Source of the DNA: an uncultured Vicinamibacterales bacterium
Lineage (GTDB): Bacteria; Acidobacteriota; Vicinamibacteria; Vicinamibacterales; JAKQTR01
Direction of reading: 5' to 3'
Assembly: GCA_964491885.1 (NCBI GenBank)
Contig: CAZBIP010000001.1
Location: 10,745 to 74,630, forward strand
Length of the DNA: 63,886 nucleotides
A program made the translations under genes and the position numbers. This document shows, piece by piece, positions 1 to 58,076 of this stretch. Each line of letters begins with the position of its first letter. The first letter of the stretch is position 1. The notes below the pieces were generated by a model that was not told the DNA's origin, searched no databases, and saw nothing but the letters and a program-made list of their open reading frames with translations.

Positions 1-183
1 CCCAGCTCTGTCGCCCGCGCCTTCACCGACTGTGCGGTCAACATGTGGGCGGAAGCCAGAATTCAGAAGCCAGAAGCCAGAATCCAGAATGCGGAACGAA
101 GCACGCAGCACGCGAACCACGTCGATCGCGGCGTTTGGCCTTCAACGGGTTCTGACTCCTTGCAGACGGACGACGAATTCTGA
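1..183 (+). CDS. 3' end of an unidentified CDS (partial, frame 1); true stop uncertain
   Basis: Frame 1 is open from the window edge to TGA at 181-183. The first ~50 nt show the strong G/C third-position bias of real genes here. It is absent from the ORF track because no start lies in the window. The last ~40 codons run through a heptamer array. Confidence 0.25.
   Translation, partial: PSSVARAFTDCAVNMWAEARIQKPEARIQNAERSTQHANHVDRGVWPSTGSDSLQTDDEF
52..114. repeat. 7-nt tandem array, family A (GAAGCCA GAATTCA GAAGCCA GAAGCCA GAATCCA GAATGCG ..., degenerating 3')
   Basis: Read directly from the sequence: nine consecutive 7-nt units, the last three or four degenerate. Confidence 0.85.
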
Positions 184-21861: not shown

Positions 21862-22799
21862 CGGACCCTGCGGGCGATCCCTTCCGGGAGTATCTGCGCG
21901 CGCGGCGGGAGGCGGTGGACCGGGAACTCGACCGGATCCTCCCCCCGGTGACGGGCCGCCTGTCGGGCGTCCACGACGCCATGCGTTACAGCCTCTTCGC
22001 CGGAGGCAAGCGCTTCAGGCCGATTCTCGCCCTCGCCGCGGCCGACGCCGTCGCGCCCGGCGATCCGGATGCCGTCCGCCTCGCCATGCCCGCGGCCTGC
22101 GCGATCGAGATGATCCACACCTACTCGCTCGTCCACGACGACCTGCCCGCCATGGACAACGACACGATCAGACGCGGCAAGCCCACGCTGCACGTGGTGT
22201 GCGGCGAAGGCCTCGCGATCCTGGCGGGCGACGGGCTGCTGGCCGAAGCGTTCGTGCTGCTGGCCCGCGAGCCCGGGTGCGACGGGCGGCCGGAGATCGC
22301 CGCGCGCAAGCTCGCCGCCATCCGCCGCATCGCGGATGCCGCCGGCGCGGCCGGCATGGTCGGCGGCCAGGCGATGGACCTGCAGGCCGCCGGGCACGGG
22401 TGCGACGCCGACGGGCTGGATGCCGAAGGCGTCCGGGACATGCACGCCCGCAAGACCGGCGCGCTCATCCGCGCGGCCGCGGCCACCGGCGCCGTCATGG
22501 CCGGCGCCGGTCCCGCGCGCGTCGAGGCCGTGGACCGCTACGCGGCCTCTCTCGGCCTCGCCTTCCAGATCGTCGACGACGTGCTCGACGTCGAGGGCAC
22601 GGACGGGGCGCTCGGCAAGACCGCGGGCAAGGACGCGGCGGCGGGCAAGCCGACCTACCCGGCGCTCTTCGGCCTCGACGCGTCGAAGCGCCTCGCCCGC
22701 GAGGCGGCCGACGCCGCGCGTGCGGCCCTCGCCGCCGAAGGCCTCGGGGACACGCGGCTCGCCGAGATCGTCACGTGGGTTGTCTCGCGCAGCTCGTAG
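21858..22799 (+). CDS. ispA: polyprenyl (farnesyl/geranylgeranyl) diphosphate synthase
   Basis: GTG 21858 overlaps the xseB stop (GTGA). Both Asp-rich motifs are present: LVHDDLPAMDNDTIRRG and FQIVDDVLD. The track ORF 21570-22799 is N-terminally over-extended. Confidence 0.9.
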   Translation: MTDPAGDPFREYLRARREAVDRELDRILPPVTGRLSGVHDAMRYSLFAGGKRFRPILALAAADAVAPGDPDAVRLAMPAACAIEMIHTYSLVHDDLPAMDNDTIRRGKPTLHVVCGEGLAILAGDGLLAEAFVLLAREPGCDGRPEIAARKLAAIRRIADAAGAAGMVGGQAMDLQAAGHGCDADGLDAEGVRDMHARKTGALIRAAAATGAVMAGAGPARVEAVDRYAASLGLAFQIVDDVLDVEGTDGALGKTAGKDAAAGKPTYPALFGLDASKRLAREAADAARAALAAEGLGDTRLAEIVTWVVSRSS

Positions 22800-22810
22800 A
22801 GCCGCCCGCC

Positions 22811-23596
22811 ATGCCGCCGCGCCCCCGCACACGCCTCGATGCCGCGCTCGTCAGCCGGGGACTCGCGCCGTCGCGCGAGCGGGCGCGCGCGCTCGTGCTG
22901 GCCGGGCGCGTCCGCGTGGGCGAGGCCATCGTCACCAAGGCGGGGGCGGACGTCCCGGACGGCGCGCCGCTCACGGTCGTCGAACCGGACTTTCCCTGGG
23001 TCGGCCGCGGCGGCGTCAAGCTCGCGCACGCCCTCGACACCTTCGGGATCGACGTCACCGGCCGGGAGGCGCTCGACATCGGCGCCTCGACCGGGGGCTT
23101 CACCGACGTGCTGCTCCGGCGGGGCGCCGCGCGGGTCGTCGCGCTCGACGTGGGGCACGGTCAGCTCGACTGGCGATTGCGGGAAGACCCTCGCGTGGTC
23201 GTGCTCGAGCGTCACAACGCCAGGCAGTTGGCGCGCGGCTGGCTGCCGGCACCCGCGGGCATCGTCACGATCGACGTGTCGTTCATCTCGCTCCGGCTCG
23301 TCCTGCCCGCGCTGCCGCCGGTCCTCGCGGACGGGGCCGACGTGGTGGCGCTCGTGAAGCCGCAGTTCGAGGCGGGGCGCGCCCAAGTCGGGCGGGGCGG
23401 CCTGGTGAAGGACCCGGCCGTGCACGAGGCGGTGCTGGCGCGCGTGACGGACGCGGCGGACGCCTGCGGCCTGCGCCGCGTCGCGATGACGCCCTCGCCG
23501 ATCACCGGGGCGACGGGCAACGTGGAGTTCCTGATGCACCTGCGCGCCGCGGCCGCGGGGCCAGGCTGCGACTCGGCGTCGGCCTTCGACGCCTGA
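22811..23596 (+). CDS. tlyA: TlyA-family rRNA 2'-O-methyltransferase
   Basis: ATG 22811 lies inside track ORF 21743-23596. An S4 domain (RLDAALVSRGLAPSRERARALVLAGRVRV) and the SAM motif LDIGASTGGFTD are present. Confidence 0.9.
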   Translation: MPPRPRTRLDAALVSRGLAPSRERARALVLAGRVRVGEAIVTKAGADVPDGAPLTVVEPDFPWVGRGGVKLAHALDTFGIDVTGREALDIGASTGGFTDVLLRRGAARVVALDVGHGQLDWRLREDPRVVVLERHNARQLARGWLPAPAGIVTIDVSFISLRLVLPALPPVLADGADVVALVKPQFEAGRAQVGRGGLVKDPAVHEAVLARVTDAADACGLRRVAMTPSPITGATGNVEFLMHLRAAAAGPGCDSASAFDA

Positions 23597-26251: not shown

Positions 26252-27130
26252 ATGAACATCACTCGCGTGGGAATCGTCGCCAAGCCGGGCCTGGTCGCAC
26301 TCCGCGACGACCTGCCGCGCATCGTCGCGTGGCTCGGGGAGCGCGGCGTCGCCTCGTGGCTCGATCAGGAAACACAGCGACTGATGGGCGCCACCAGCCT
26401 GCCCGTCGCGTCGCGCGACGAGATGCCGGGCCTCGTGGATCTCGTCCTGCTCCTCGGCGGCGACGGCACGCTCCTCGGCATGGCCGACCGCATCGCCCAG
26501 GCCGGGCGGGACGTCCCGATCCTCGGCGTCAACTTCGGCGGCCTCGGGTTCCTCACCGAGATCAAGTACGACGAACTCTATCCGGCGCTCGAGTCCGTGC
26601 TGGCCGGCACGGCGCTCATCGAGCCGCGGCTGATGCTGCGCGGCGTCATCACGCGCGGCGGCCGCACCGTGAGGGACACCCACGTGCTGAACGAGGTCGC
26701 CATCACGGGCGGGTCGCTGTCGCGCGTCGTCGAGTTCGGGGTGCGGGTCGGCGGCCAGCCGGTCGCGACCTTCCACGCGGACGGCATCATCATCTCGACG
26801 CCGACCGGGTCCACGGCGTACAACCTCTCCGCCGGAGGCCCGATCGTCCACCCGGCCGTTCACGCCCTCGTGCTGAATCCCATCGCGCCGCACACGCTGA
26901 CGAACCGCCCGGTGGTCATCCCCGCGTCGGCCGACGTCGAGGTCAGGCCGGGACTGCGGGATCCCGCGGCCGAGGCCTTCGTGACGTTCGACGGGCAATT
27001 CGGCGACCGCCTCGAGGCGCACGACGTCGTCCTGGTGCGGGCCGCTTCGTCACCGGCCCGGCTCATCCGCGCCCCGGCCCGCAGCTACTACGACGTGCTG
27101 CGCACGAAACTGAGGTGGGCGGAAAGATAG
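26252..27130 (+). CDS. nadK: NAD(+) kinase
   Basis: 292 aa with the LLLGGDGTLLG motif and a TPTGSTAYNLSAGGP region. Confidence 0.93.
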   Translation: MNITRVGIVAKPGLVALRDDLPRIVAWLGERGVASWLDQETQRLMGATSLPVASRDEMPGLVDLVLLLGGDGTLLGMADRIAQAGRDVPILGVNFGGLGFLTEIKYDELYPALESVLAGTALIEPRLMLRGVITRGGRTVRDTHVLNEVAITGGSLSRVVEFGVRVGGQPVATFHADGIIISTPTGSTAYNLSAGGPIVHPAVHALVLNPIAPHTLTNRPVVIPASADVEVRPGLRDPAAEAFVTFDGQFGDRLEAHDVVLVRAASSPARLIRAPARSYYDVLRTKLRWAER

Positions 27131-27169
27131 AATTCAGAAGTCAGAATTCGGAATTCAGAAGCCGGAATG
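27128..27169. repeat. 7-nt tandem array, family A (TAGAATT CAGAAGT CAGAATT CGGAATT CAGAAGC CGGAATG)
   Basis: Read directly from the sequence. The first three bases are the nadK TAG stop codon. Confidence 0.9.
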
Positions 27170-27212: not shown

Positions 27213-28250
27213 TCAGCGCGAGGACGCCCTGTCGCCCCGGCGGAAGAACTGCACCTGGAACTGCTGCACGTTGCGGTTGTGCTCCCGCAGCGTCGACGCG
27301 AACGCGTGGGAGCCGTCGTTCCGGCTGACGAAGTACAGGTAAGGCACCGCCGCGGGATGGGCGGCGGCGACGAGCGACGCCTCCCCGGGCGCGGCGATCG
27401 GCCCTGGCGGCAGCCCGGCGTACCGGTAGGTGTTGTACGGCGAGGCCAGCGCGAGGTCGGCACGCGTGAGGTTGCCGGTGTAGCGCCCCTGCAGTTCGAG
27501 CGCGTAAATCACCGTGGGATCGCACTGAAGCCCCATCCGCCGCTGCAGGCGGTTGTGGTACACGCCGGCGACCAGAGGCCGCTCGTCGGCGCGCGCCGTC
27601 TCCTTCTCGACGAGCGAAGCGAGCGTGACGAGCTGCCGCACGGTCAGCCCGCGCGCCTGCGCCGCGGCGCGCACGTCGCCGGTCAGGGCCTTCTCGAAGC
27701 GCGACACCATCATCCGGACGAGATCCTCGGCCGACGCGCGGCGCGGGAGCGCGTACGTGTCCGGGAACAGGTACCCCTCGAGGTCCCTGGCGAGCGGATC
27801 GAGATCGCGGACCAACCCGGCCTCCCGCGCGGCGCTGGCGAAGGCCGTCGCGGAACCCAGCCCGGCCGACTCGTACACGGCTGACATCTGGCGGATCGTG
27901 AGACCCTCGGGAAACGTGACCGTCCGCAGGTAGACGTCGCCGCGCGCGAGCCTGTCCACGACACCGGCCGGCGTCATCGGGTCCGTGAACCGGTACTCGC
28001 CGGCTTTCAGTGCCGTCGCGCGGCCGCTCTGCCAGACGGCCAGCCGCCAGGTCAGTTCGTCCCGCACGATCCCGTCCCGGACGAGCAGCCGTCCGATCGC
28101 CCGAGGCCCCAGTCCGCCAGGGATGTCGACGAACTGCTCGCCGGCCTCGTACCCCCGATAGGGCTGGGCCAGGCGCGCCTGCTGCTGGCGCGCGAACCAC
28201 GCGCCGGCGGCCAGCGCGGCGATGACGACGAGGAGCGCGAATCGCTTCAT
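27213..28250 (-). CDS. mltG: endolytic murein transglycosylase MltG (YceG family)
   Basis: 345 aa with an N-terminal TM segment. The YceG-like core includes FPEGLTIRQM and ASLVEKET. Confidence 0.9.
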   Translation of the reverse strand: MKRFALLVVIAALAAGAWFARQQQARLAQPYRGYEAGEQFVDIPGGLGPRAIGRLLVRDGIVRDELTWRLAVWQSGRATALKAGEYRFTDPMTPAGVVDRLARGDVYLRTVTFPEGLTIRQMSAVYESAGLGSATAFASAAREAGLVRDLDPLARDLEGYLFPDTYALPRRASAEDLVRMMVSRFEKALTGDVRAAAQARGLTVRQLVTLASLVEKETARADERPLVAGVYHNRLQRRMGLQCDPTVIYALELQGRYTGNLTRADLALASPYNTYRYAGLPPGPIAAPGEASLVAAAHPAAVPYLYFVSRNDGSHAFASTLREHNRNVQQFQVQFFRRGDRASSR

Positions 28251-28272: not shown

Positions 28273-28335
28273 CATTCTGGATTCTGAATTCTGAATTCAG
28301 GATTCTGACTCCTGACTCCTGACTTCTGACTTCTG
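28273..28335. repeat. 7-nt tandem array, family A inverse orientation (9 units: CATTCTG GATTCTG AATTCTG AATTCAG GATTCTG ACTCCTG x2 ACTTCTG x2)
   Basis: Read directly from the sequence. It covers the ruvX-mltG spacer and the last 12 sense codons plus the stop of the ruvX ORF. Confidence 0.9.
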
Positions 28336-36804: not shown

Positions 36805-37002
36805 ATGCCCAAGTTGAAGACACATCGGGGGGCCGCCAAGCGGTTCAAGAAGACGGCAACCGGAAAGTTCGTCAGACATTCCGCGTTCAAGCGTCACCAG
36901 GCGGCCAGCAAGACCACCAAGCGGAAGCGGCACCTGGGCAAGTCCAGCGTCGCATCGCCGGCCGACGCGCCGACGCTGGCGCGGATGCTGCCCTACAAGT
37001 AG
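36805..37002 (+). CDS. rpmI: 50S ribosomal protein L35
   Basis: [22 protein letters not shown]..., 65 aa. Confidence 0.95.
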
Positions 37003-37089
37003 GGGCTAGGGGCTAGGGGCTAGGCGCTAGGCGCTAGGCGCTAGGGACAAGGGTTAGGGGCTAGGGGCTAGGCGCTAGGCGCTAGTCTG
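37000..37089. repeat. 7-nt tandem array, family B (TAGGGGC x3, TAGGCGC x3, TAGGGAC, AAGGGT, TAGGGGC x2, TAGGCGC x2, TAGTCTG)
   Basis: Read directly from the sequence. The first unit begins with the rpmI TAG stop. The array lies inside the rpmI-rplT intercistronic region. Confidence 0.92.
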
Positions 37090-37203
37090 ATGGGGCGCGG
37101 AGACCTGGGACCCGGGGAAGCCACCCCCCGGTGATCGGCTCAGGCGCCGGGGCGGGCGAGGCCCGCCGGACACGAGTCGTCGAGTGGCCGTGGAGAAACG
37201 AAC

Positions 37204-37597: not shown

Positions 37598-37873
37598 ATG
37601 TTGAAGACAGGACGGCCGGTCGACACCGAAGCCCTCGACCGGCTGGAAGAGAAGGTCAAGCTGCTGGTGGCCCTCATCGGCCGCCTTCGCAGCGAGCAGA
37701 CGCGGATGAGCGACGAGCTCCAGAGAGTCACCAAGGAGCTGGACGCGGCCCGGGCCGGCCTCAAGGAGGCCGACGGCGCGACGGCCGAGGCGGCGGCGCT
37801 GAAGGAAGAGCGCGACCTCATCCGCGCCCGCGTCAGCTCCCTGGTCGAGCAGCTCGAGGGACTCAACATCTAG
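37598..37873 (+). CDS. coiled-coil protein, ZapB-like (putative cell-division factor)
   Basis: 91 aa, predicted to be an all-helical coiled coil, immediately upstream of zapA. The family assignment is tentative. Confidence 0.5.
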   Translation: MLKTGRPVDTEALDRLEEKVKLLVALIGRLRSEQTRMSDELQRVTKELDAARAGLKEADGATAEAAALKEERDLIRARVSSLVEQLEGLNI

Positions 37874-37882
37874 GGCCCGACG

Positions 37883-38200
37883 ATGGCCGAAGGCCTGATC
37901 CCGGTCGAGATCTTCGGTCAGCGCTATCCGATCCGGAGCGCGCTCGATCCCCAGTACGTCCAGCAGCTGGCCAGCTACGTGGACGAGCGCATGCGGGCGG
38001 CGGCCGAGCAGTCGCCCGCCGGCGACTCGGTCCGGCTGGCCGTCCTGGCCGCCCTGAACATCGCCGACGAGGCGTACCGGGTGCTGGACGCCGAGGATGG
38101 CCGTCCGGCCACGCTCTCGGCGCGCCTCGCGGCGCTCGAGCGCCTGATCGACGCGGCGCTCGACGCCGGCTACCCGCCCGACGAGGCCGACCCGCTCTGA
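37883..38200 (+). CDS. zapA: cell division protein ZapA
   Basis: 105 aa. The VEIFGQRYPIRS... N-terminus and the length are typical of ZapA. Confidence 0.8.
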   Translation: MAEGLIPVEIFGQRYPIRSALDPQYVQQLASYVDERMRAAAEQSPAGDSVRLAVLAALNIADEAYRVLDAEDGRPATLSARLAALERLIDAALDAGYPPDEADPL

Positions 38201-38224
38201 GAGTCCCGGCCTCGGCCGGGACTC
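38201..38224 (+). terminator. hairpin directly after zapA stop
   Basis: GAGTCCCGGC-ctcg-GCCGGGACTC is a perfect 10-bp stem, followed by TGCTTG. The U-tract is weak. Confidence 0.5.
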
Positions 38225-38227
38225 TGC

Positions 38228-38256
38228 TTGACCGCCTTCCGCCCTCGTTCTAAGAT
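38228..38256 (+). promoter_or_regulatory. near-consensus sigma70 promoter for the candidate 6S RNA
   Basis: TTGACC (38228-38233), a 17-nt spacer, then TAAGAT (38251-38256). Confidence 0.6.
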
Positions 38257-38262
38257 CCACTC

Positions 38263-38460
38263 GAGACAACTCACGGGTTCCCTGCTTTGTGCGTGATGGT
38301 GTGGAGGCTCGTTTGAGCCAACGTTGAGTCCAAGGGACTGCGACGCCGTGCGGTGTGCATGCCTCCGAGTCGAGGAAGCCTGAAGCACGGCTCATCGAGC
38401 GGTCCCACCTGCTGATGGCAGGTTCATCGACCTCCCCACACGGCAGAGCGGGGCCTTTCT
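38263..38460 (+). ncRNA. ssrS: candidate 6S RNA
   Basis: A non-coding gap between zapA and rny; zapA-ssrS synteny is known from E. coli. Hand-folding gives a long imperfect closing helix (38280-38286/38447-38453, 38298-38311/38428-38441). It also gives an internal helix (38333-38337/38402-38406, 38344-38350/38385-38391), an apical hairpin (38362-38375) and a central bubble whose 3' side can form CCTGC-tgatg-GCAGG. The ends are approximate. Confidence 0.55.
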
Positions 38461-50450: not shown

Positions 50451-51875
50451 ATGAGCGCTGCAGCAGGACCCAGGGCCACCATCGGCCTCATCGTCGGGAA
50501 CCGCGGATTCTTCCCGGACCACCTCGCACGGAGCGGGCGCGAGGAGATGCTGGCGGTGCTCGGCGCCGCCGGCGTGGACGCCGTCGTGCTCGGGCCGGAC
50601 GAGTCGAAGCACGGCGCCGTGGAGACGCCGGCGGAAGCCCGGCGCTGCGCGGACCTGTTCCGGTCGCGGCGGGACGCCATCGACGGCGTGATCATCACGC
50701 TGCCCAACTTCGGCGAGGAGCGCGCGCTCGTCGACACCCTGCGCCTCTCGGGCCTCGACGTGCCCGTGCTCGTGCAGGCCACGCCCGACGACACTGGGCG
50801 CATGACGATCCGCGACCGCCGCGACAGCTTCTGCGGCAAGATGTCGGCCTGCAACAACCTCACGCAGTACGGGATCCGCTACTCGCTCACCACGCGGCAC
50901 ACCGAGGCGCCCGGGTCGGCCGAGTTCGCCCGGGACCTGGAGTGGTTCCTCGGCGTCTGCCGCGTCGTGCGCGGCCTGCGCGGCCTGCGCGTCGGCGCCA
51001 TCGGCGCGCGCCCGGCCGCGTTCAACACGGTGCGCTACAGCGAGAAACTCCTCGAGGCGAGCGGCATCTCCGTCGAGCCCGTGGACCTCAGCGAGATCCT
51101 CGGGCGCGTCGGCCTGCTGAAGGAGGACGACCCGGCGGTGCAGCGGAAGCTCGCCGAGATCCGCGCTTACGTGCCGGTCGGCGAGACGCCCCCGGCCGCG
51201 CTGATGAAGATGGCCAGGCTCGGCACCGCGATCGACGCGTGGATGGCCGAGACGTACGTGGCCGTCACCGCGCTCCAGTGCTGGACCGCCCTCGAGACGT
51301 ACTTCGGCGTCGTGCCCTGCACGCTGATGAGCATGATGAGCCACGGCCTGGCGTCGAGCGGCTGCGAGGTGGACGTCTGCGGCGCGGTGGCGATGCACGC
51401 GCTCCGCCTGGCGTCGGGTACGCCGAGCGCCCTGCTCGACTGGAACAACAACTACGGCGACGATCCCGACAAGGCCGTGTGCTTCCACTGCAGCAATTTG
51501 CCGAAGCACTTCCTCACGGACGTGCAGATGGACTACCAGGCCATCATCGCCGGCAGCGTCGGCCGCGACAACACCTTCGGCACGTGCGTGGGACGCGTCA
51601 AGAGCGGGCCGATGACCTTCGCCCGCTTCTCCACCGACGATCGCGCCGGCCGGATCCGAGGCTACGTCGGCGAGGGGGCGTTCACCGACGACCCGCTGTC
51701 CACCTTCGGCGGCGCGGGCGTCGTGCACATCCCGCGCATGCAGGCCCTGCTGCGGTTCATCTGCGAGCACGGGTTCGAGCACCACGTGGCCGCCAACCTC
51801 TCTTCCGTGGGCGCCGTCGTCCACGAAGCGGTGACGAAGTATCTCGGGTGGGAGATGTACTGGCACGAGGAATAG
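50451..51875 (+). CDS. L-fucose/L-arabinose isomerase family protein
   Basis: ATG 50451 (MSAAAGPRATIGLIVGNRGFFPDHL...). About 474 aa. The family assignment rests on overall resemblance to FucI-related isomerases and on the araB/araD context. Confidence 0.75.
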   Translation: MSAAAGPRATIGLIVGNRGFFPDHLARSGREEMLAVLGAAGVDAVVLGPDESKHGAVETPAEARRCADLFRSRRDAIDGVIITLPNFGEERALVDTLRLSGLDVPVLVQATPDDTGRMTIRDRRDSFCGKMSACNNLTQYGIRYSLTTRHTEAPGSAEFARDLEWFLGVCRVVRGLRGLRVGAIGARPAAFNTVRYSEKLLEASGISVEPVDLSEILGRVGLLKEDDPAVQRKLAEIRAYVPVGETPPAALMKMARLGTAIDAWMAETYVAVTALQCWTALETYFGVVPCTLMSMMSHGLASSGCEVDVCGAVAMHALRLASGTPSALLDWNNNYGDDPDKAVCFHCSNLPKHFLTDVQMDYQAIIAGSVGRDNTFGTCVGRVKSGPMTFARFSTDDRAGRIRGYVGEGAFTDDPLSTFGGAGVVHIPRMQALLRFICEHGFEHHVAANLSSVGAVVHEAVTKYLGWEMYWHEE

Positions 51876-51893
51876 GGGCTAGGGGCTAGGGGA
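51873..51893. repeat. 7-nt tandem array, family B (TAGGGGC TAGGGGC TAGGGGA)
   Basis: Read directly from the sequence. The first three bases are the isomerase TAG stop. Confidence 0.85.
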
Positions 51894-54304: not shown

Positions 54305-56236
54305 ATGACGATGCTCGACCGCATGCGGCGTCACAAGGGCTGGCTCAAGTGGAGCCTCGCCCTCGTGGTGATCGCATTCATCATCCTCTACATCCCGGAC
54401 TTCCTGCAGCGGCAGGACCCGGCCCAGGCGGGCGCGCTGCCGAGCGACCAGGTCGCGCAGGTGAACGGCCGGGGCATCAGCGTCCTCGAGTTCCGCACGG
54501 CCTACCAGCGCCAGATCTCGGCCTACCGCCAGGCGTACGGGTCGGGCATCAACGAGCAGATGCTGAAGCAGCTCGGGTTCGAGCAGCAGGTGCTCCAGCA
54601 GCTGATCAACGAGCAGGCCATCCTGGCCGAGGCAGGCCGCCTGGGCATGACGGTCACGGACGCCGAGGTGCGGCAGCGCATCCTCACGATGCCGGACTTC
54701 CAGGCGAACGGGCAGTTCGTGGGCGAAGCGCAGTACCAGGCCATGCTCTCCCGCTCGTCGCCGCCCATGACGCCCGCCGAGTTCGAGACGATGCTCCGCC
54801 GCAGCCTGCTCGTCGAGAAGCTCCAGGCCCTCGTGACGGACTGGGTGGCGGTGACCGACGCGGAAGCGGACGCCGAGTTCACGCGCCGGAACGAGAAGGT
54901 GAAGGTCCAGCTGGTGCACGTCGCCGCGTCGGGGTTCCTCGGCCAGGTGAGCGCCACCGACGCCGACGTCGCGGCGTATTACGAGGCGCACAAGCAGGAC
55001 TATGAGATTGGCGAGCGCCGGAAGATCCGCTACGTCCTCGTCGACACCGAGGCCCTTCGCAAGGGCATCGTCGTGCCGTCGCGCGAGCTGGAGCGGTACT
55101 ACAACGACAACATCGACCTGTTCTCGACGCCCGAGCAGGTGCGCGCCAGCCACATCCTCTTCGAGACCGAGGGCAAGACCGAAGCGGACGTGCGCGCGGC
55201 TGCCGAGAAAGTCCTGCTGGAAGCCAAGGCCGGGAAGGACTTCGCCGGGCTCGCAAAGCAGCACTCCGGCGACGAGGCGACCGCGACGCTCGGCGGGGAC
55301 CTCGACTACTTCGGCCGCGGCCGCATGACGCCCGCGTTCGAGGACGCCGCCTTCGGCGCCGAGCAGCCGGGCCTGCTGCCCGAGCTCGTCAGGACGCCGT
55401 TCGGGTTCCACATCATCAAGGTGGTCGACAAGAAGGCCGGCACGACCCGGGCCTTCGACGAGGTGAAGGCGCAGATCCAGGACCAGCTCACGGGCGAGCG
55501 CGCCCAGCGGCAGGCCGATCGCAAGGCGGACGAACTGGCGAAGGCCATCTCGGAACCGGCCGACATGGACAAGGCCGCCGCCGCGCGGGGGCTGAAGGTC
55601 GAGGAGACCGGCTTCTTCACGGTCGACGAGCCCATTTTGACCCTCGGCGCGTCGCAGCAGGTGTCGAGCGCGGTCTTCGCCCTCGCCGAAGGCGCCGTGA
55701 GCGCCCCGCTGGCCGTCGGCCGCGGGTTCGTCGTCGCGACCGTGTCCGGACGCCAGGCCGCGTCGATTCCGAAACTGGACGAGGTGAAGGACAAGGTCCG
55801 CAACGACGTCCTGCGGGAGAAGGCGGGCGCGCTGGCTGCGGAGAAGGCGCGGGCCGTGGCGGCGGCGCTGAAGGCGGCCCCCGACTTTGCGGCGGCCGCC
55901 AGGAAGGCCGGGCTCGAGGCCAAGAGCAGCGAACTCGTGGCGCGCGGCGCCGCGCTGCCCGACGTGGGCGTGGATGCCGCCGTCGAGCGCGCCGCGTTCG
56001 GCCTGGCCGTCGGCGCGACGAGCGACGCGGTCGCCAGCCGGGACGGCGCCACAATCCTGAAGGTCGTCGAGCGCAAGGACGTGACGCCGGCCGAGGCCGC
56101 CGCCTCGCGCGAGTCGACTCGGCAGCAGCTGGTCGACGAGCGTCGCAGCGAGTTCTTCACCGCCTACATGGTGAAGGCCCGGCAGCGGATGAAGATCGAT
56201 CTCAACCGGGAAGTGATCGACCAGATCATTGGCTAG
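54305..56236 (+). CDS. ppiD: periplasmic chaperone/peptidyl-prolyl isomerase PpiD-like
   Basis: 643 aa with an N-terminal TM anchor, SurA-N-like region and a parvulin domain (ASHILF...GGDLDYFGRG). Confidence 0.85.
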   Translation: MTMLDRMRRHKGWLKWSLALVVIAFIILYIPDFLQRQDPAQAGALPSDQVAQVNGRGISVLEFRTAYQRQISAYRQAYGSGINEQMLKQLGFEQQVLQQLINEQAILAEAGRLGMTVTDAEVRQRILTMPDFQANGQFVGEAQYQAMLSRSSPPMTPAEFETMLRRSLLVEKLQALVTDWVAVTDAEADAEFTRRNEKVKVQLVHVAASGFLGQVSATDADVAAYYEAHKQDYEIGERRKIRYVLVDTEALRKGIVVPSRELERYYNDNIDLFSTPEQVRASHILFETEGKTEADVRAAAEKVLLEAKAGKDFAGLAKQHSGDEATATLGGDLDYFGRGRMTPAFEDAAFGAEQPGLLPELVRTPFGFHIIKVVDKKAGTTRAFDEVKAQIQDQLTGERAQRQADRKADELAKAISEPADMDKAAAARGLKVEETGFFTVDEPILTLGASQQVSSAVFALAEGAVSAPLAVGRGFVVATVSGRQAASIPKLDEVKDKVRNDVLREKAGALAAEKARAVAAALKAAPDFAAAARKAGLEAKSSELVARGAALPDVGVDAAVERAAFGLAVGATSDAVASRDGATILKVVERKDVTPAEAAASRESTRQQLVDERRSEFFTAYMVKARQRMKIDLNREVIDQIIG

Positions 56237-56300
56237 GGGCTAGGGGCTAGGGGCTAGGAAGGATGGACTGACTAGCGCCCAGCGCCTAGTCCCTAGCGCC
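56234..56300. repeat. inverted pair of family-B 7-nt arrays (TAGGGGC x3 + TAGGAAG / loop / CTAGCGC CCAGCGC CTAGTCC CTAGCGC)
   Basis: Read directly from the sequence. The first TAG is the ppiD stop. The two arms can pair as a ~26-bp stem with 4 mismatches, between the convergent genes ppiD and sppA. Confidence 0.9.
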
Positions 56301-56315
56301 TGATCTCGCCTTCGC

Positions 56316-58076
56316 TCACCTGATGTACGTCCCCGGCATGAGGGCCAGCGGCTCGCCGCGGCGGAACAGCCGGAGCGGCGCCGTGAGGGCCCCGGCGGCC
56401 CGGCGGCCCTGCGGTCCGAGGAACGACCCGAGACCGACGCGCCCGTCAGCACCGGTGAGCGTGGACATCAGCAGGTCGTAGACGCTCCGCTTCGGGGGGT
56501 ACACGATCAGTTCGACCTGCTCCCCCGCCGGAATCTTCGCGCGCTCCTTCGCGATCGCCACGGCGCGGTCGAGGCCGCCGAGTACGTCGACGAGCCCCAG
56601 GTCTTTCGCCTGCCGGCCCGTCCAGACCCGGCCCTGGGCGATGGCGTCGACGGCTTCCGGCGTCATGTGCCGGGCCGCCGCCACTTTCTCGACGAACTGA
56701 TCGTAGAAGGCTCTCAGCTGCTCGTCGAGCTTCGCGCGCTCGGCCTCGCTGAAGGGCCGGACGGGCGAACCCATGTCCGCGAAGGCGCCGATGCTCAGCG
56801 TTTCGACGTTCATCCCGAGCTTCTCGTAGGTCCCCCCGGTCACGATCTTCCCGCCGTAGATGCCGATGGAACCGGTCAGCGTGCCGGGCTCAGCCACGAT
56901 GTCCGGCGCGGCGATGGCGATGTAGTACCCGCCCGAGGCGGCCAGGTCCGACATCGACGCCACGAGCGGTCTCGCCGAGGGCCCGGTCGTGAGCAGGCTC
57001 AGTTCGCGCCAGATCACGTCGGACGCGATCGTGGACCCGCCCGGGCTGTCGATGTGCAGCACGACGGCCTTGATCGACCGATCGCGCCGCGCCTTCCGGA
57101 TGTACTCCACGAGCGTGTCGGAGCCCAGCACGGAGCCGCTCAGGGGATCGATCCCGCTGTGGCCGGTGTTGATGACGCCGACGGCGTTGATGACCGCGAC
57201 GCGCGACCGCCCCTTCAGTCCGACCGAACTCGGGCTCACCTTCGCGTAAGCCTCGCCCTTCAGCCGCACGACGCGCGACGCACCTGGCCTCATCTTGGCG
57301 TCGAGCTGATCCTCGTACGCGACGTCGTCCACGAGGCCGAGCCGGACCGCGTCCTCGGCCAGGAACGGCCCCTCGTCTACCATCCCCTTGACGTCGGCGA
57401 CGCGCTTCTTCCGCCCCTCGGCGATGCCCTGCACGAGCTGCTCGAACAGGTCGCGGTTCAGCGATTCCGACATCTCGCGGTGCGCGGGCGTGAGAGTCTT
57501 CTCGGTGAGCTGATTCGGGGCCGTCTTGTAGTCGCCGATGTGCAGGTAGTCGGGATACGCGCCGATCTTGTCGAGGGTCCCGCGCAGGAAGAGCTCGTAC
57601 GACGCGAGACCGGTCAGGTCGAGCGGGCTCGCGGGCAGCAGGAACACGCGGCCGCAGCCCGTCGCGACGAAGTACTCGCGGTCGCCGCCGTACTCGAGGT
57701 GCGCGACGGCTGGCTTGCCCGACGCGCGGAAGTCGGCGATCGCGTCCCGCACTTCCTGCAGCTTCGCCCAGTAGGCCGACGAGAGGCCGCGCGGGTACAC
57801 CACCACCGCCGAGATGCGGCGGTCGGCCTTGGCCTTGCGCAGGTTCTCGACGATCGTGCGGACGCCTTGGCGCCGCTGGCTCATCAGGCTGTCGAGCACG
57901 TTCTCGGACGAGGCGTCGGCGAGATCGCCTTCGACGCGCACTTCGAGGACCGAGTCGGCGGCGACCGCCGGTTCGCGCCCCGCCACGAGCATCAGGACGG
58001 CCATCCCCGCGACGGACACGAGAACGGCGAGCAGGAGAAGCGTCAGCACCAACCCCAGGCCACGTCGCGTTGCCAC
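56316..58076 (-). CDS. sppA: signal peptide peptidase SppA (67K type, tandem S49 domains)
   Basis: The track ORF extends to 58211 and would overlap the divergent gene. GTG 58076 is preferred: it has GAAGGGGG 6 nt upstream and gives an N-terminus VATRRGLGLVLTLLLLAV (charged residues then a TM segment). TGcTATACT (58102-58110, minus strand) is a possible extended -10. Confidence 0.85.
   Translation of the reverse strand: MATRRGLGLVLTLLLLAVLVSVAGMAVLMLVAGREPAVAADSVLEVRVEGDLADASSENVLDSLMSQRRQGVRTIVENLRKAKADRRISAVVVYPRGLSSAYWAKLQEVRDAIADFRASGKPAVAHLEYGGDREYFVATGCGRVFLLPASPLDLTGLASYELFLRGTLDKIGAYPDYLHIGDYKTAPNQLTEKTLTPAHREMSESLNRDLFEQLVQGIAEGRKKRVADVKGMVDEGPFLAEDAVRLGLVDDVAYEDQLDAKMRPGASRVVRLKGEAYAKVSPSSVGLKGRSRVAVINAVGVINTGHSGIDPLSGSVLGSDTLVEYIRKARRDRSIKAVVLHIDSPGGSTIASDVIWRELSLLTTGPSARPLVASMSDLAASGGYYIAIAAPDIVAEPGTLTGSIGIYGGKIVTGGTYEKLGMNVETLSIGAFADMGSPVRPFSEAERAKLDEQLRAFYDQFVEKVAAARHMTPEAVDAIAQGRVWTGRQAKDLGLVDVLGGLDRAVAIAKERAKIPAGEQVELIVYPPKRSVYDLLMSTLTGADGRVGLGSFLGPQGRRAAGALTAPLRLFRRGEPLALMPGTYIR

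Follow-up and report, generated by a model that had tools for sequence, protein, structure and literature searches.

What makes a short tandem repeat start exactly where a gene stops? The question is raised by a 63,886-nt stretch of DNA from an uncultured Vicinamibacterales bacterium (assembly GCA_964491885.1, contig CAZBIP010000001.1, positions 10,745 to 74,630; hereafter the window), in which 7-nt units of two families, TAGGSGC (family B) and CAGAAKY (family A), are repeated head to tail and confined to six intergenic loci. A sequence-only reading of this DNA had proposed that every array touches a stop codon and that such an arrangement was an undescribed element. We find that the anchoring at stop codons is real and far beyond chance, both in the window and in counts over more than 200 loci from many phyla, but that it is not an undescribed arrangement. 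The arrays very probably belong to the dispersed heptanucleotide simple-sequence repeats (SSRs), that is, repeats of the short tandemly repeated repetitive (STRR) type or the long SSRs of Mrazek (2007). As to their origin, the explanation that we favor, with a probability of roughly 0.55, is that they are generated by slippage, are tolerated in untranslated spacers, and sometimes form hairpins at the stop codon that resemble those of repetitive extragenic palindromic (REP) elements.

The excess of these units over chance is large. In the window, whose G+C content is about 72%, the two-unit pattern of family B (TAGGSGCTAGGSGC; TAGGSGC twice, with at most one mismatch) has 15 occurrences, whereas dinucleotide shuffles predict 0.09, and that of family A (CAGAAKYCAGAAKY; CAGAAKY twice) has 18, whereas shuffles predict 0.05, which is about 170 to 360 times the shuffled expectation, and 100% of the matches to both patterns fall inside the six loci. 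Three family B and three family A loci lie within 64 kb, all in spacers, and the only overlaps of open reading frames (ORFs) with arrays are the tail of ruvX and an ORF at the left edge of the window. Tandem Repeats Finder detected period-7 arrays at 52-89, 175-197, 27129-27160, 28274-28335, 51873-51892, 56231-56258 and 37000-37085, the last with 12.4 copies and a score of 109; these calls and direct reading of the letters agree with the six loci recognized earlier. At gathering score, Rfam 15 found only a 6S RNA and a tRNA in the whole window, and the arrays match no family. The arrays are not an assembly artefact, since the 3' part of the rpmI array is also present in an independent contig (L001, a Logan contig from SRR27710296, with 98.9% identity to the window), and since the family B unit is present in records titled complete or nearly complete genomes. 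The independent contig starts inside the rpmI-rplT array (its positions 1-22), where a short-read assembly appears to have been broken by these repeats.

Direct reading bears out that, at all three family B loci, the stop codon is itself part of the repeat: the TAG stops of rpmI (37000), of a fucose-isomerase-like gene (51873) and of ppiD (56234) are at the same time the first TAG of the array. The rpmI array (37000-37089, plus strand), with rplT (37204) downstream, is composed of TAGGGGC and TAGGCGC units, which number about 12 rather than the 13 counted at first, and which form two sub-arrays with an irregular TAGGGAC-AAGGGT junction between them. The isomerase array (51873-51893, plus strand) consists of TAGGGGC, TAGGGGC and TAGGGGA, with the start of an FGGY kinase gene 21 nt downstream. 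At ppiD, what had been taken for one array at 56234-56300 is only in its first part a direct array of 3.5 TAGGGGC units (56234-56258, plus strand), the 5' arm of a predicted hairpin; the remainder (56270-56300, minus strand) is an inverted arm with family B-type units (GGCGCTA, GGGACTA, GGCGCTG and GGCGCTA), which would form the 3' arm of the ppiD hairpin and lies 17 nt 3' of the stop (56316-56318) of a convergent S49 peptidase gene, whose own G-rich array it is when read on the minus strand.

The family A loci show a related arrangement, again confirmed by direct reading. The nadK TAG (27128) is the beginning of a TAGAATT unit, which is followed by CAGAAGT, CAGAATT, CGGAATT, CAGAAGC and CGGAATG (27128-27169, plus strand). 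On the minus strand, the acnA TAG (198-200) is followed without a gap by three TCAGAAT units (175-200), while the array at 52-114 (plus strand; CAGAAKY units that are clean at 57-90 and degenerate from there to about 114) supplies the complementary, distal arm of the predicted acnA 3' hairpin. Between ruvX and yceG, an array of CAGAAGT, CAGGAGT and CAGAATY units (28273-28335, minus strand) is entered by the ruvX ORF, the stop of which (28297-28299) lies inside the array. As a result, the last 12 residues of RuvX, QKSEVRSQESES, are encoded by the array; they are missing from the ortholog in a Vicinamibacterales metagenome-assembled genome (MAG; L027), which ends soon after the conserved ILQEYLD motif. 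The gene names used here are supported by Pfam, in which the flanking genes match aconitase, NAD kinase, YceG, RuvX, L35, L20, Fucose_iso_C, FGGY kinase, a PpiD-like SurA_N/rotamase protein and S49 peptidase.

The earlier claim that every array touches a stop codon holds for acnA, nadK, rpmI, the isomerase, ppiD and ruvX, but not for the array at 52-114, which touches no visible stop. An ORF at the left edge (window 1-183, plus strand, frame 1), in which the G+C content at third codon positions (GC3) is high at first, stays open through this array and the spacer, and ends at a TGA (181-183) within the inverted arm; from the reading frame, the C-terminus of its protein may have been lengthened by the array. 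With the exception of this distal arm, the eight window arrays all lie 0-17 nt from a stop, and the gene that ends there has their purine-rich strand as its sense strand. Each gene that abuts a family A array reads it as CAGAAKY, a strand with zero stop triplets, so the ability of this family to place stops in three frames resides on the strand that these genes leave unused. TAG is the stop codon of about 19 of the 49 called genes in the window, which seems high, as TGA is usually the dominant stop at 72% G+C.

Outside the window, a scan for three consecutive TAGGSGC units in one genome per species returned at least 119 stretches, and among the matches listed were cyanobacteria, Gamma- and Betaproteobacteria, Acidobacteriota, Gemmatimonadota, Planctomycetota, Chloroflexota, Frankia and others. 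Genes in the comparison loci were called by simple composition rules (GC3, and higher G+C content at first than at second codon positions, GC1>GC2), with overlaps resolved by score, and the distance to a stop codon was counted for arrays with a called gene end at most 400 nt away on the side in question. The contrast between the two sides of the same arrays serves as an internal control, and it is large despite errors in the gene calls. For family B, a stop lies at most 15 nt from the 5' end of the purine strand in 48 of 59 arrays, vs. 5 of 60 on the pyrimidine side (Fisher p = 7e-17). The same bias is seen for other units with GGG (13/21 vs. 2/16, p = 0.003) and for units lacking GGG (15/24 vs. 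3/31, p = 4e-5). Only 8 of 247 arrays are inside called genes, and ORFs that enter TAGGSGC arrays stop at the first, second or third TAG in 20, 6 and 6 cases, respectively (binomial p = 7e-4). Between the purine strand's 3' end and the next ORF, the median gap is about 95 nt. In 76 cases a complementary partner array is found downstream, so that the purine arm comes first, compared with 3 cases in which it is upstream.

The flush neighbor of 41 arrays is a gene on the opposite strand. For 19 of them, the array is at most 23 nt from the first candidate start in frame (ATG, GTG or TTG), with no Shine-Dalgarno sequence. For example, (GCCCCTA)n arrays directly precede folB-like starts (MDKIFIEGLE and MDLVFIEDLR) in two gammaproteobacterial loci, L003 and L058, again with no Shine-Dalgarno sequence, and in L095 the ATG of an arsC-like gene shares one base with the array. 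The positional rule that has been published for such repeats (discussed below) extends to many phyla and units, whether or not a quadruplex can form.

We also considered TAGGGGC as a special, horizontally spread unit, and rejected this because composition-matched control heptamers form arrays as well: in a viral contig collection, three-unit arrays of GAGTGGC were found in 40 stretches, of TAGGGCG in 2 and of TAGGGGC in 8. Arrays of heptamers occur generally, with units that are lineage-specific; the scanned loci contain dozens of further heptamers, many other units in these genomes begin with TAG, and the number of units ranges from 3 to more than 20 across loci. GAGTGGC was picked as a control, yet it forms many arrays in viral contigs (L211-L250, e.g., L211, L223, L236 and L249), and one viral contig of 40.7 kb holds many of them. 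In these arrays, the outermost unit is often TAGTGGC, with GCCACTA closing the inverted arm on the far side, several of the loops have a GAATTCGATTC-like core in common, and some arrays adjoin an ATG on the other strand (GCCACTATG).

Dispersed heptanucleotide repeats have been known since about 1990, and the STRR of heterocystous cyanobacteria are dispersed tandem heptamers with the units CCCCAGT, TTGGTCA and CAACAGT (STRR1-3). The window arrays resemble STRR in being tandem heptanucleotides dispersed over many loci per genome, but they are not STRR in the strict sense, since their units are TAGGSGC and CAGAAKY and their host is syntenic with a Vicinamibacterales MAG. What places them in the wider class of dispersed heptanucleotide SSRs is that they have at least three head-to-tail units, occupy several non-coding loci and vary in unit number between relatives. 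Closest to them are the GGGAATC repeats of Xanthomonas and the GGGGA(C/T)T repeats of Nostoc, which are intergenic, nearest to the 5' ORF, and situated 0-50 bp after the stop on the coding strand, overlap with the stop included (Rehm et al., 2015; PMC4692102). In the same study, 70-75 convergent inverted pairs were counted per Xanthomonas genome, repeat length differed between species at conserved loci, and no function was found, while quadruplex formation in vitro was reported for related units and regulation via quadruplexes was proposed (Rehm et al., 2015). The window arrays are alike in being intergenic, dispersed 7-nt tandem repeats with convergent inverted pairs and a species-variable unit number, and in having the purine-rich coding strand at most 50 bp after the stop of the nearest 5' ORF. 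They differ in that the TAG of family B makes the array itself supply the stop, and in that family A and TAGGCGC have no G-tracts and cannot form quadruplexes.

A second precedent is given by TAACTGA repeats in Beggiatoaceae, cyanobacteria and Bacteroidetes, which give stops in all three frames and, in some sets, overlap the stops of upstream genes (MacGregor, 2015; PMC4679880). They have in common with the window arrays a heptamer with a built-in stop, an occurrence in ribosomal-protein operons and a patchy distribution across phyla. However, TAACTGA repeats are mostly a few nucleotides upstream of starts, in forward orientation and in 2-6 copies, whereas the units in the window are different, and its arrays begin at stops and leave 21-114 nt to the start that follows. 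Because overlap with stop codons was already reported in these two papers (PMC4692102, PMC4679880), the arrangement in the window is not that of an undescribed element; the units and the Acidobacteriota host are new, while the kind of element and its stop anchoring were already known. A text search of the literature for the present unit strings returned nothing relevant.

Two other classes of intergenic element are less similar. REP elements and bacterial interspersed mosaic elements (BIMEs) are likewise extragenic, with a species-specific sequence at many loci, often at most 15 nt from a stop, but a REP is a conserved single palindrome of 20-40 nt that is linked to REP-associated tyrosine transposases (RAYTs), whereas the stems in the window consist of 7-nt units in varying number, and at half of the loci no palindrome is present. 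MITEs (miniature inverted-repeat transposable elements) with a TA target site, e.g., Correia and Nezha, also have inverted arms in intergenic positions, and TA is found at the outer ends of some of our arrays. However, the arrays have no fixed length, conserved core or clear target duplication, and loci with a single arm are common.

Comparison of orthologous loci shows that the arrays change in unit number and come and go. At the rpmI stop, the array of L121 has 5 units, against about 12.4 in the window, and the same TAG is the first unit. Apparently orthologous arrays in Thiobacillus have 7 (L070) and 5 (L088) units, and those 5' of the folB-like starts have 11 (L003) and 5 (L058). The exact L35 protein, looked up for population variants, proved not to be on record. 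The Vicinamibacterales MAG L027 is syntenic with 21.4-29.6 kb of the window at about 70% nucleotide identity, and at its positions 2331-2391 a TAGGGGC array is found at the end of a TlyA-like gene, the ortholog of the window gene at 22336-23596. The L027 ORF ends with ...HLRARG* on the second TAG of the array, whereas its window counterpart (23540-23596) has a longer, unrelated protein tail and no array. Gain and loss of arrays between genera is thus evident.

A rearrangement is seen in the same region: yceG/mltG (window 27213-28250; L027 3331-4362) is inverted relative to nadK and ruvX between the window and L027. In the window, yceG is bracketed by the two oppositely oriented family A arrays (27128-27169 and 28273-28335), and no arrays are found there in L027. 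An inversion of yceG mediated by the arrays is possible, judging from this one relative.

Predicted RNA structure is prominent at some of the loci. When the sense RNA of the upstream gene was folded, the acnA locus gave -58.8 kcal/mol (z -3.6), with a long predicted hairpin from the stop codon in which 52-114 pairs with 175-197 in the minus-strand RNA, and the ppiD locus gave -46.0 kcal/mol (z -2.8), again with a long hairpin from the stop codon. The rpmI locus also folds into a long predicted hairpin that starts at the stop codon (-47.9 kcal/mol, z -4.3; 0 of 200 shuffles were as stable), in which the two sub-arrays pair via CUAG palindromes. The folds at nadK (z -0.5) and ruvX-yceG (z -0.9) were not significant, no structure was predicted at the isomerase-kinase locus (z +2.0), and scans around all six loci found no terminator-like hairpin with a U-tract.

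The rpmI-rplT spacer was followed further in a metagenome scan with L20, which gave 80 loci of 59-85% identity (best segment), L121 being the closest. In more distant lineages, heptamers of a different sequence lie at the rpmI stop or immediately behind it, in many cases as inverted pairs. For example, L125 has family A at this site (TAG-AATC, CAGAAGC, CAGAAGT and further units), then a short loop and ATTCTGG repeats. Autocorrelation over the first 50 nt of 62 such spacers peaks at lag 7 (0.376 vs. 0.25-0.30 at other lags). Stable folds (z of -2 or lower) are predicted in 36 of the 62 spacers, and 29 of the 36 start at most 8 nt from the stop. Judging from these predicted folds, a hairpin flush with the stop is a recurrent feature of the rpmI-rplT spacer, while its sequence turns over, often with 7-nt units.

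Other features of this spacer and its surroundings deserve mention. The window (37090-37203) and L121 (60-185) have a leader of about 110 nt before rplT that is conserved between them and has a second predicted hairpin. In other relatives (L126-L198; e.g., L133:992-1082), about 65-125 nt upstream of rplT, a motif GCGnGTGAAGAGGY is followed by a variable insert and RCCTCCAGCCGC; it is present in 43 of the 80 loci, which are Acidobacteriota-like, and is absent from the lineage of the window. Its helix has compensatory changes (pair 16-59 is U-A in 20 sequences and C-G in 12), and Rfam gave no match on five loci with the motif. On this comparative evidence, the motif is a candidate L20 autoregulatory leader. 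Downstream, the window has ZapB-like and ZapA genes and then a 6S RNA gene (38276-38458, 87.7 bits) within 37598-38458, and a 6S match likewise lies downstream of rplT in L121; E. coli has the zapA-ssrS order as well.

Taken together, these results can be accommodated by the explanation that we favor, slippage followed by tolerance in spacers. Arrays would gain and lose units, 7 nt at a time, with replication slippage as the most likely cause, and would survive only in spacers that are not translated; in these, the mRNA strand is the purine-rich one, and the array starts at the upstream stop or a few bases from it at most. Since the unit of family B includes a TAG and 7 is not divisible by 3, an array can be flush with an ORF or replace its last codons, and can change in length with no change to the protein. 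We regard this TAG-based flush placement as a permissive property, not shown to be a purpose. Where an inverted second array lies downstream, or where the array is partly self-complementary as at rpmI, a long stem-loop would form, starting at the stop codon. Work by Higgins in 1988 is said to have indicated that REP stem-loops stabilize the upstream mRNA. REPs situated at most 15 nt from a stop are known to stall ribosomes, which leads to mRNA cleavage (PMC12306157). By analogy, the stem-loops of the arrays would protect the mRNA of the upstream cistron or stall the terminating ribosome, although we hold such a REP-like function to be doubtful.

Several observations weigh against this explanation. 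Since three of the six window loci have no significant structure, a hairpin function cannot cover all arrays, and among hairpins flush with one stop, those with a more stable sense RNA (8) do not outnumber those with a more stable antisense RNA (13); on these counts we rejected selection, via G-U pairs, on how the mRNA folds. Slippage adds units inside an array; it leaves unexplained a flush 5' end of the purine strand beside a 3' gap with a median of about 95 nt, as well as a flush neighbor that is sometimes a start codon on the other strand, and independent slippage does not explain why one unit is reused at several loci of a genome. The gene calls in the comparison loci are also crude, and some are wrong (e.g., in L027).

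As a first alternative, it is a tentative possibility that heptamer arrays of any unit, in many bacterial phyla, obey a single polarity, in which the purine-rich strand points away from the flush ORF, be it a same-strand stop or an other-strand start, and inverted partners have the purine arm first, independently of the unit, of quadruplexes and of built-in stops. If true, such a polarity rule implies an undescribed expression-coupled generator or filter, for example R-loop-driven or template-switch growth limited to untranslated RNA, or a dedicated copying activity, which would make hairpins at ORF boundaries and account for STRR-type repeats.

Some further explanations were rejected. Replication direction as the cause of the orientation fails because convergent gene pairs bear opposite arrays within about 50 nt. 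Growth from one end, with older units decaying at the other, would leave degenerate units mainly on one flank, but they are as common on one flank as on the other. Hairpin-mediated expansion driven by internal palindromes (CTAG, GAATTC) is not borne out either, since palindromes of at least 4 nt occur in 35 of 89 units vs. 31.5 expected, and 6-nt palindromes are not enriched in the same 89 units (7 vs. 7.7 expected). The notion that every inverted arm belongs, as its array, to a convergent gene is true at ppiD/S49 and several other loci, but fails for the hairpins between the co-directional rpmI and rplT.

Improbable, but the best of the remaining alternatives, is that the arrays are kept as fail-safe terminators, in which three units give a stop in every frame and would catch read-through or frameshifted ribosomes at 72% G+C, where stops seldom arise by chance. 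The first TAG is the stop in the 20 of 32 cases given above, TAG is present on both strands of family B, the window has spurious ORFs that run for more than 1000 codons without a stop, and the L027 ortholog ends on the second TAG of its array. However, the three-frame stop pointed out in the sequence-only reading does not behave as a selected function. Stop triplets are not enriched on the purine strand of 84 other purine-skewed heptamer arrays (43 observed vs. 41.0 expected from letter permutation), and family A has none on the strand read by its genes, so that RuvX gains 12 residues and the left-edge ORF about 45. Moreover, arrays are far longer than the three units needed, the same arrays also adjoin start codons on the opposite strand, and the class is abundant in low-GC cyanobacteria.

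Less likely still is the published proposal that the G-rich arrays fold as DNA or RNA quadruplexes beside ORFs and regulate transcription or translation. TAGGGGC does place a G4 tract every 7 nt, and related units with the same positional bias form quadruplexes in vitro (Rehm et al., 2015; PMC4692102). However, G-tracts are lacking from family A and from TAGGCGC units, whose placement in the window follows the same rule nonetheless, the arrays at 51873 and 56234 have only three GGGG tracts, at least four being present only in the rpmI array, and over all loci the units lacking GGG show the bias already reported (15/24 vs. 3/31). Since such units follow the rule, G-quadruplexes are not its general cause.

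An equally unlikely alternative is a periodic binding platform, in which a UAG or YAG every 7 nt is the site of an oligomeric RNA- or DNA-binding protein of the HutP or TRAP type, or of S1, Csp or CsrA. HutP recognizes UAG triplets spaced by four bases, both families in the window have YAG and purines in common, many other units in these genomes start with TAG, and one genome uses the same unit at several loci. S1, Csp or CsrA were suggested as binders for the TAACTGA repeats (MacGregor, 2015; PMC4679880). This is difficult to reconcile with the unrelated units that related lineages carry at the conserved rpmI stop, with the arrays formed by arbitrary control heptamers, and with a range in unit number of 3 to more than 20; no protein emerged as a candidate binder, and no protein search aimed at one was made.

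The probability is just as low that the arrays are mobile or copied elements, i.e., the arms of MITE-like or REP-like palindromes that spread and perhaps insert at TA or TAG. The reuse of one unit at several loci of a genome would fit this, as would the recurrent architecture of purine arm, loop and pyrimidine arm, and the outermost TAGTGGC and GCCACTA units and GAATTCGATTC-like loop cores of GAGTGGC arrays. However, the window arrays have no fixed length, conserved core or target-site duplication, three loci consist of a single array only, and orthologous arrays differ by whole units. In addition, arrays in L134, L138 and L149 are flush after TGA stops with no TA at the junction, and no transposase was found among the ten flanking proteins scanned.

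The weakest alternative, that the arrays are intrinsic or Rho-dependent, rut-type transcription terminators, can draw on the hairpins between convergent genes at acnA and ppiD/S49 and on a pyrimidine-rich 3' arm that would give a weak RNA-DNA hybrid, but it meets no hairpin with a U-tract at any locus and is made unlikely by three arrays between co-directional, probably co-transcribed genes (rpmI-rplT, isomerase-kinase and ruvX-yceG), while Rho loading sites were rejected since cyanobacteria, which are not known to have Rho, carry many arrays.

Within the literature that we searched, dispersed heptanucleotide repeats have no accepted origin or function. The window adds an example of Acidobacteriota type with two unit families, and since one of these cannot form quadruplexes, it speaks against the main published hypothesis as one that holds in general. 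Short-read assemblies appear to be broken by the arrays, as in L001. For gene calling in high-GC metagenomes, it matters that the arrays provide stop codons and C-terminal tails or take their place, as happens in RuvX and in the TlyA-like ortholog of L027. For the repeat class as a whole, the cross-phylum counts lead to a testable rule: the purine strand is the sense strand, it lies flush with the stop, and an inverted partner lies downstream.

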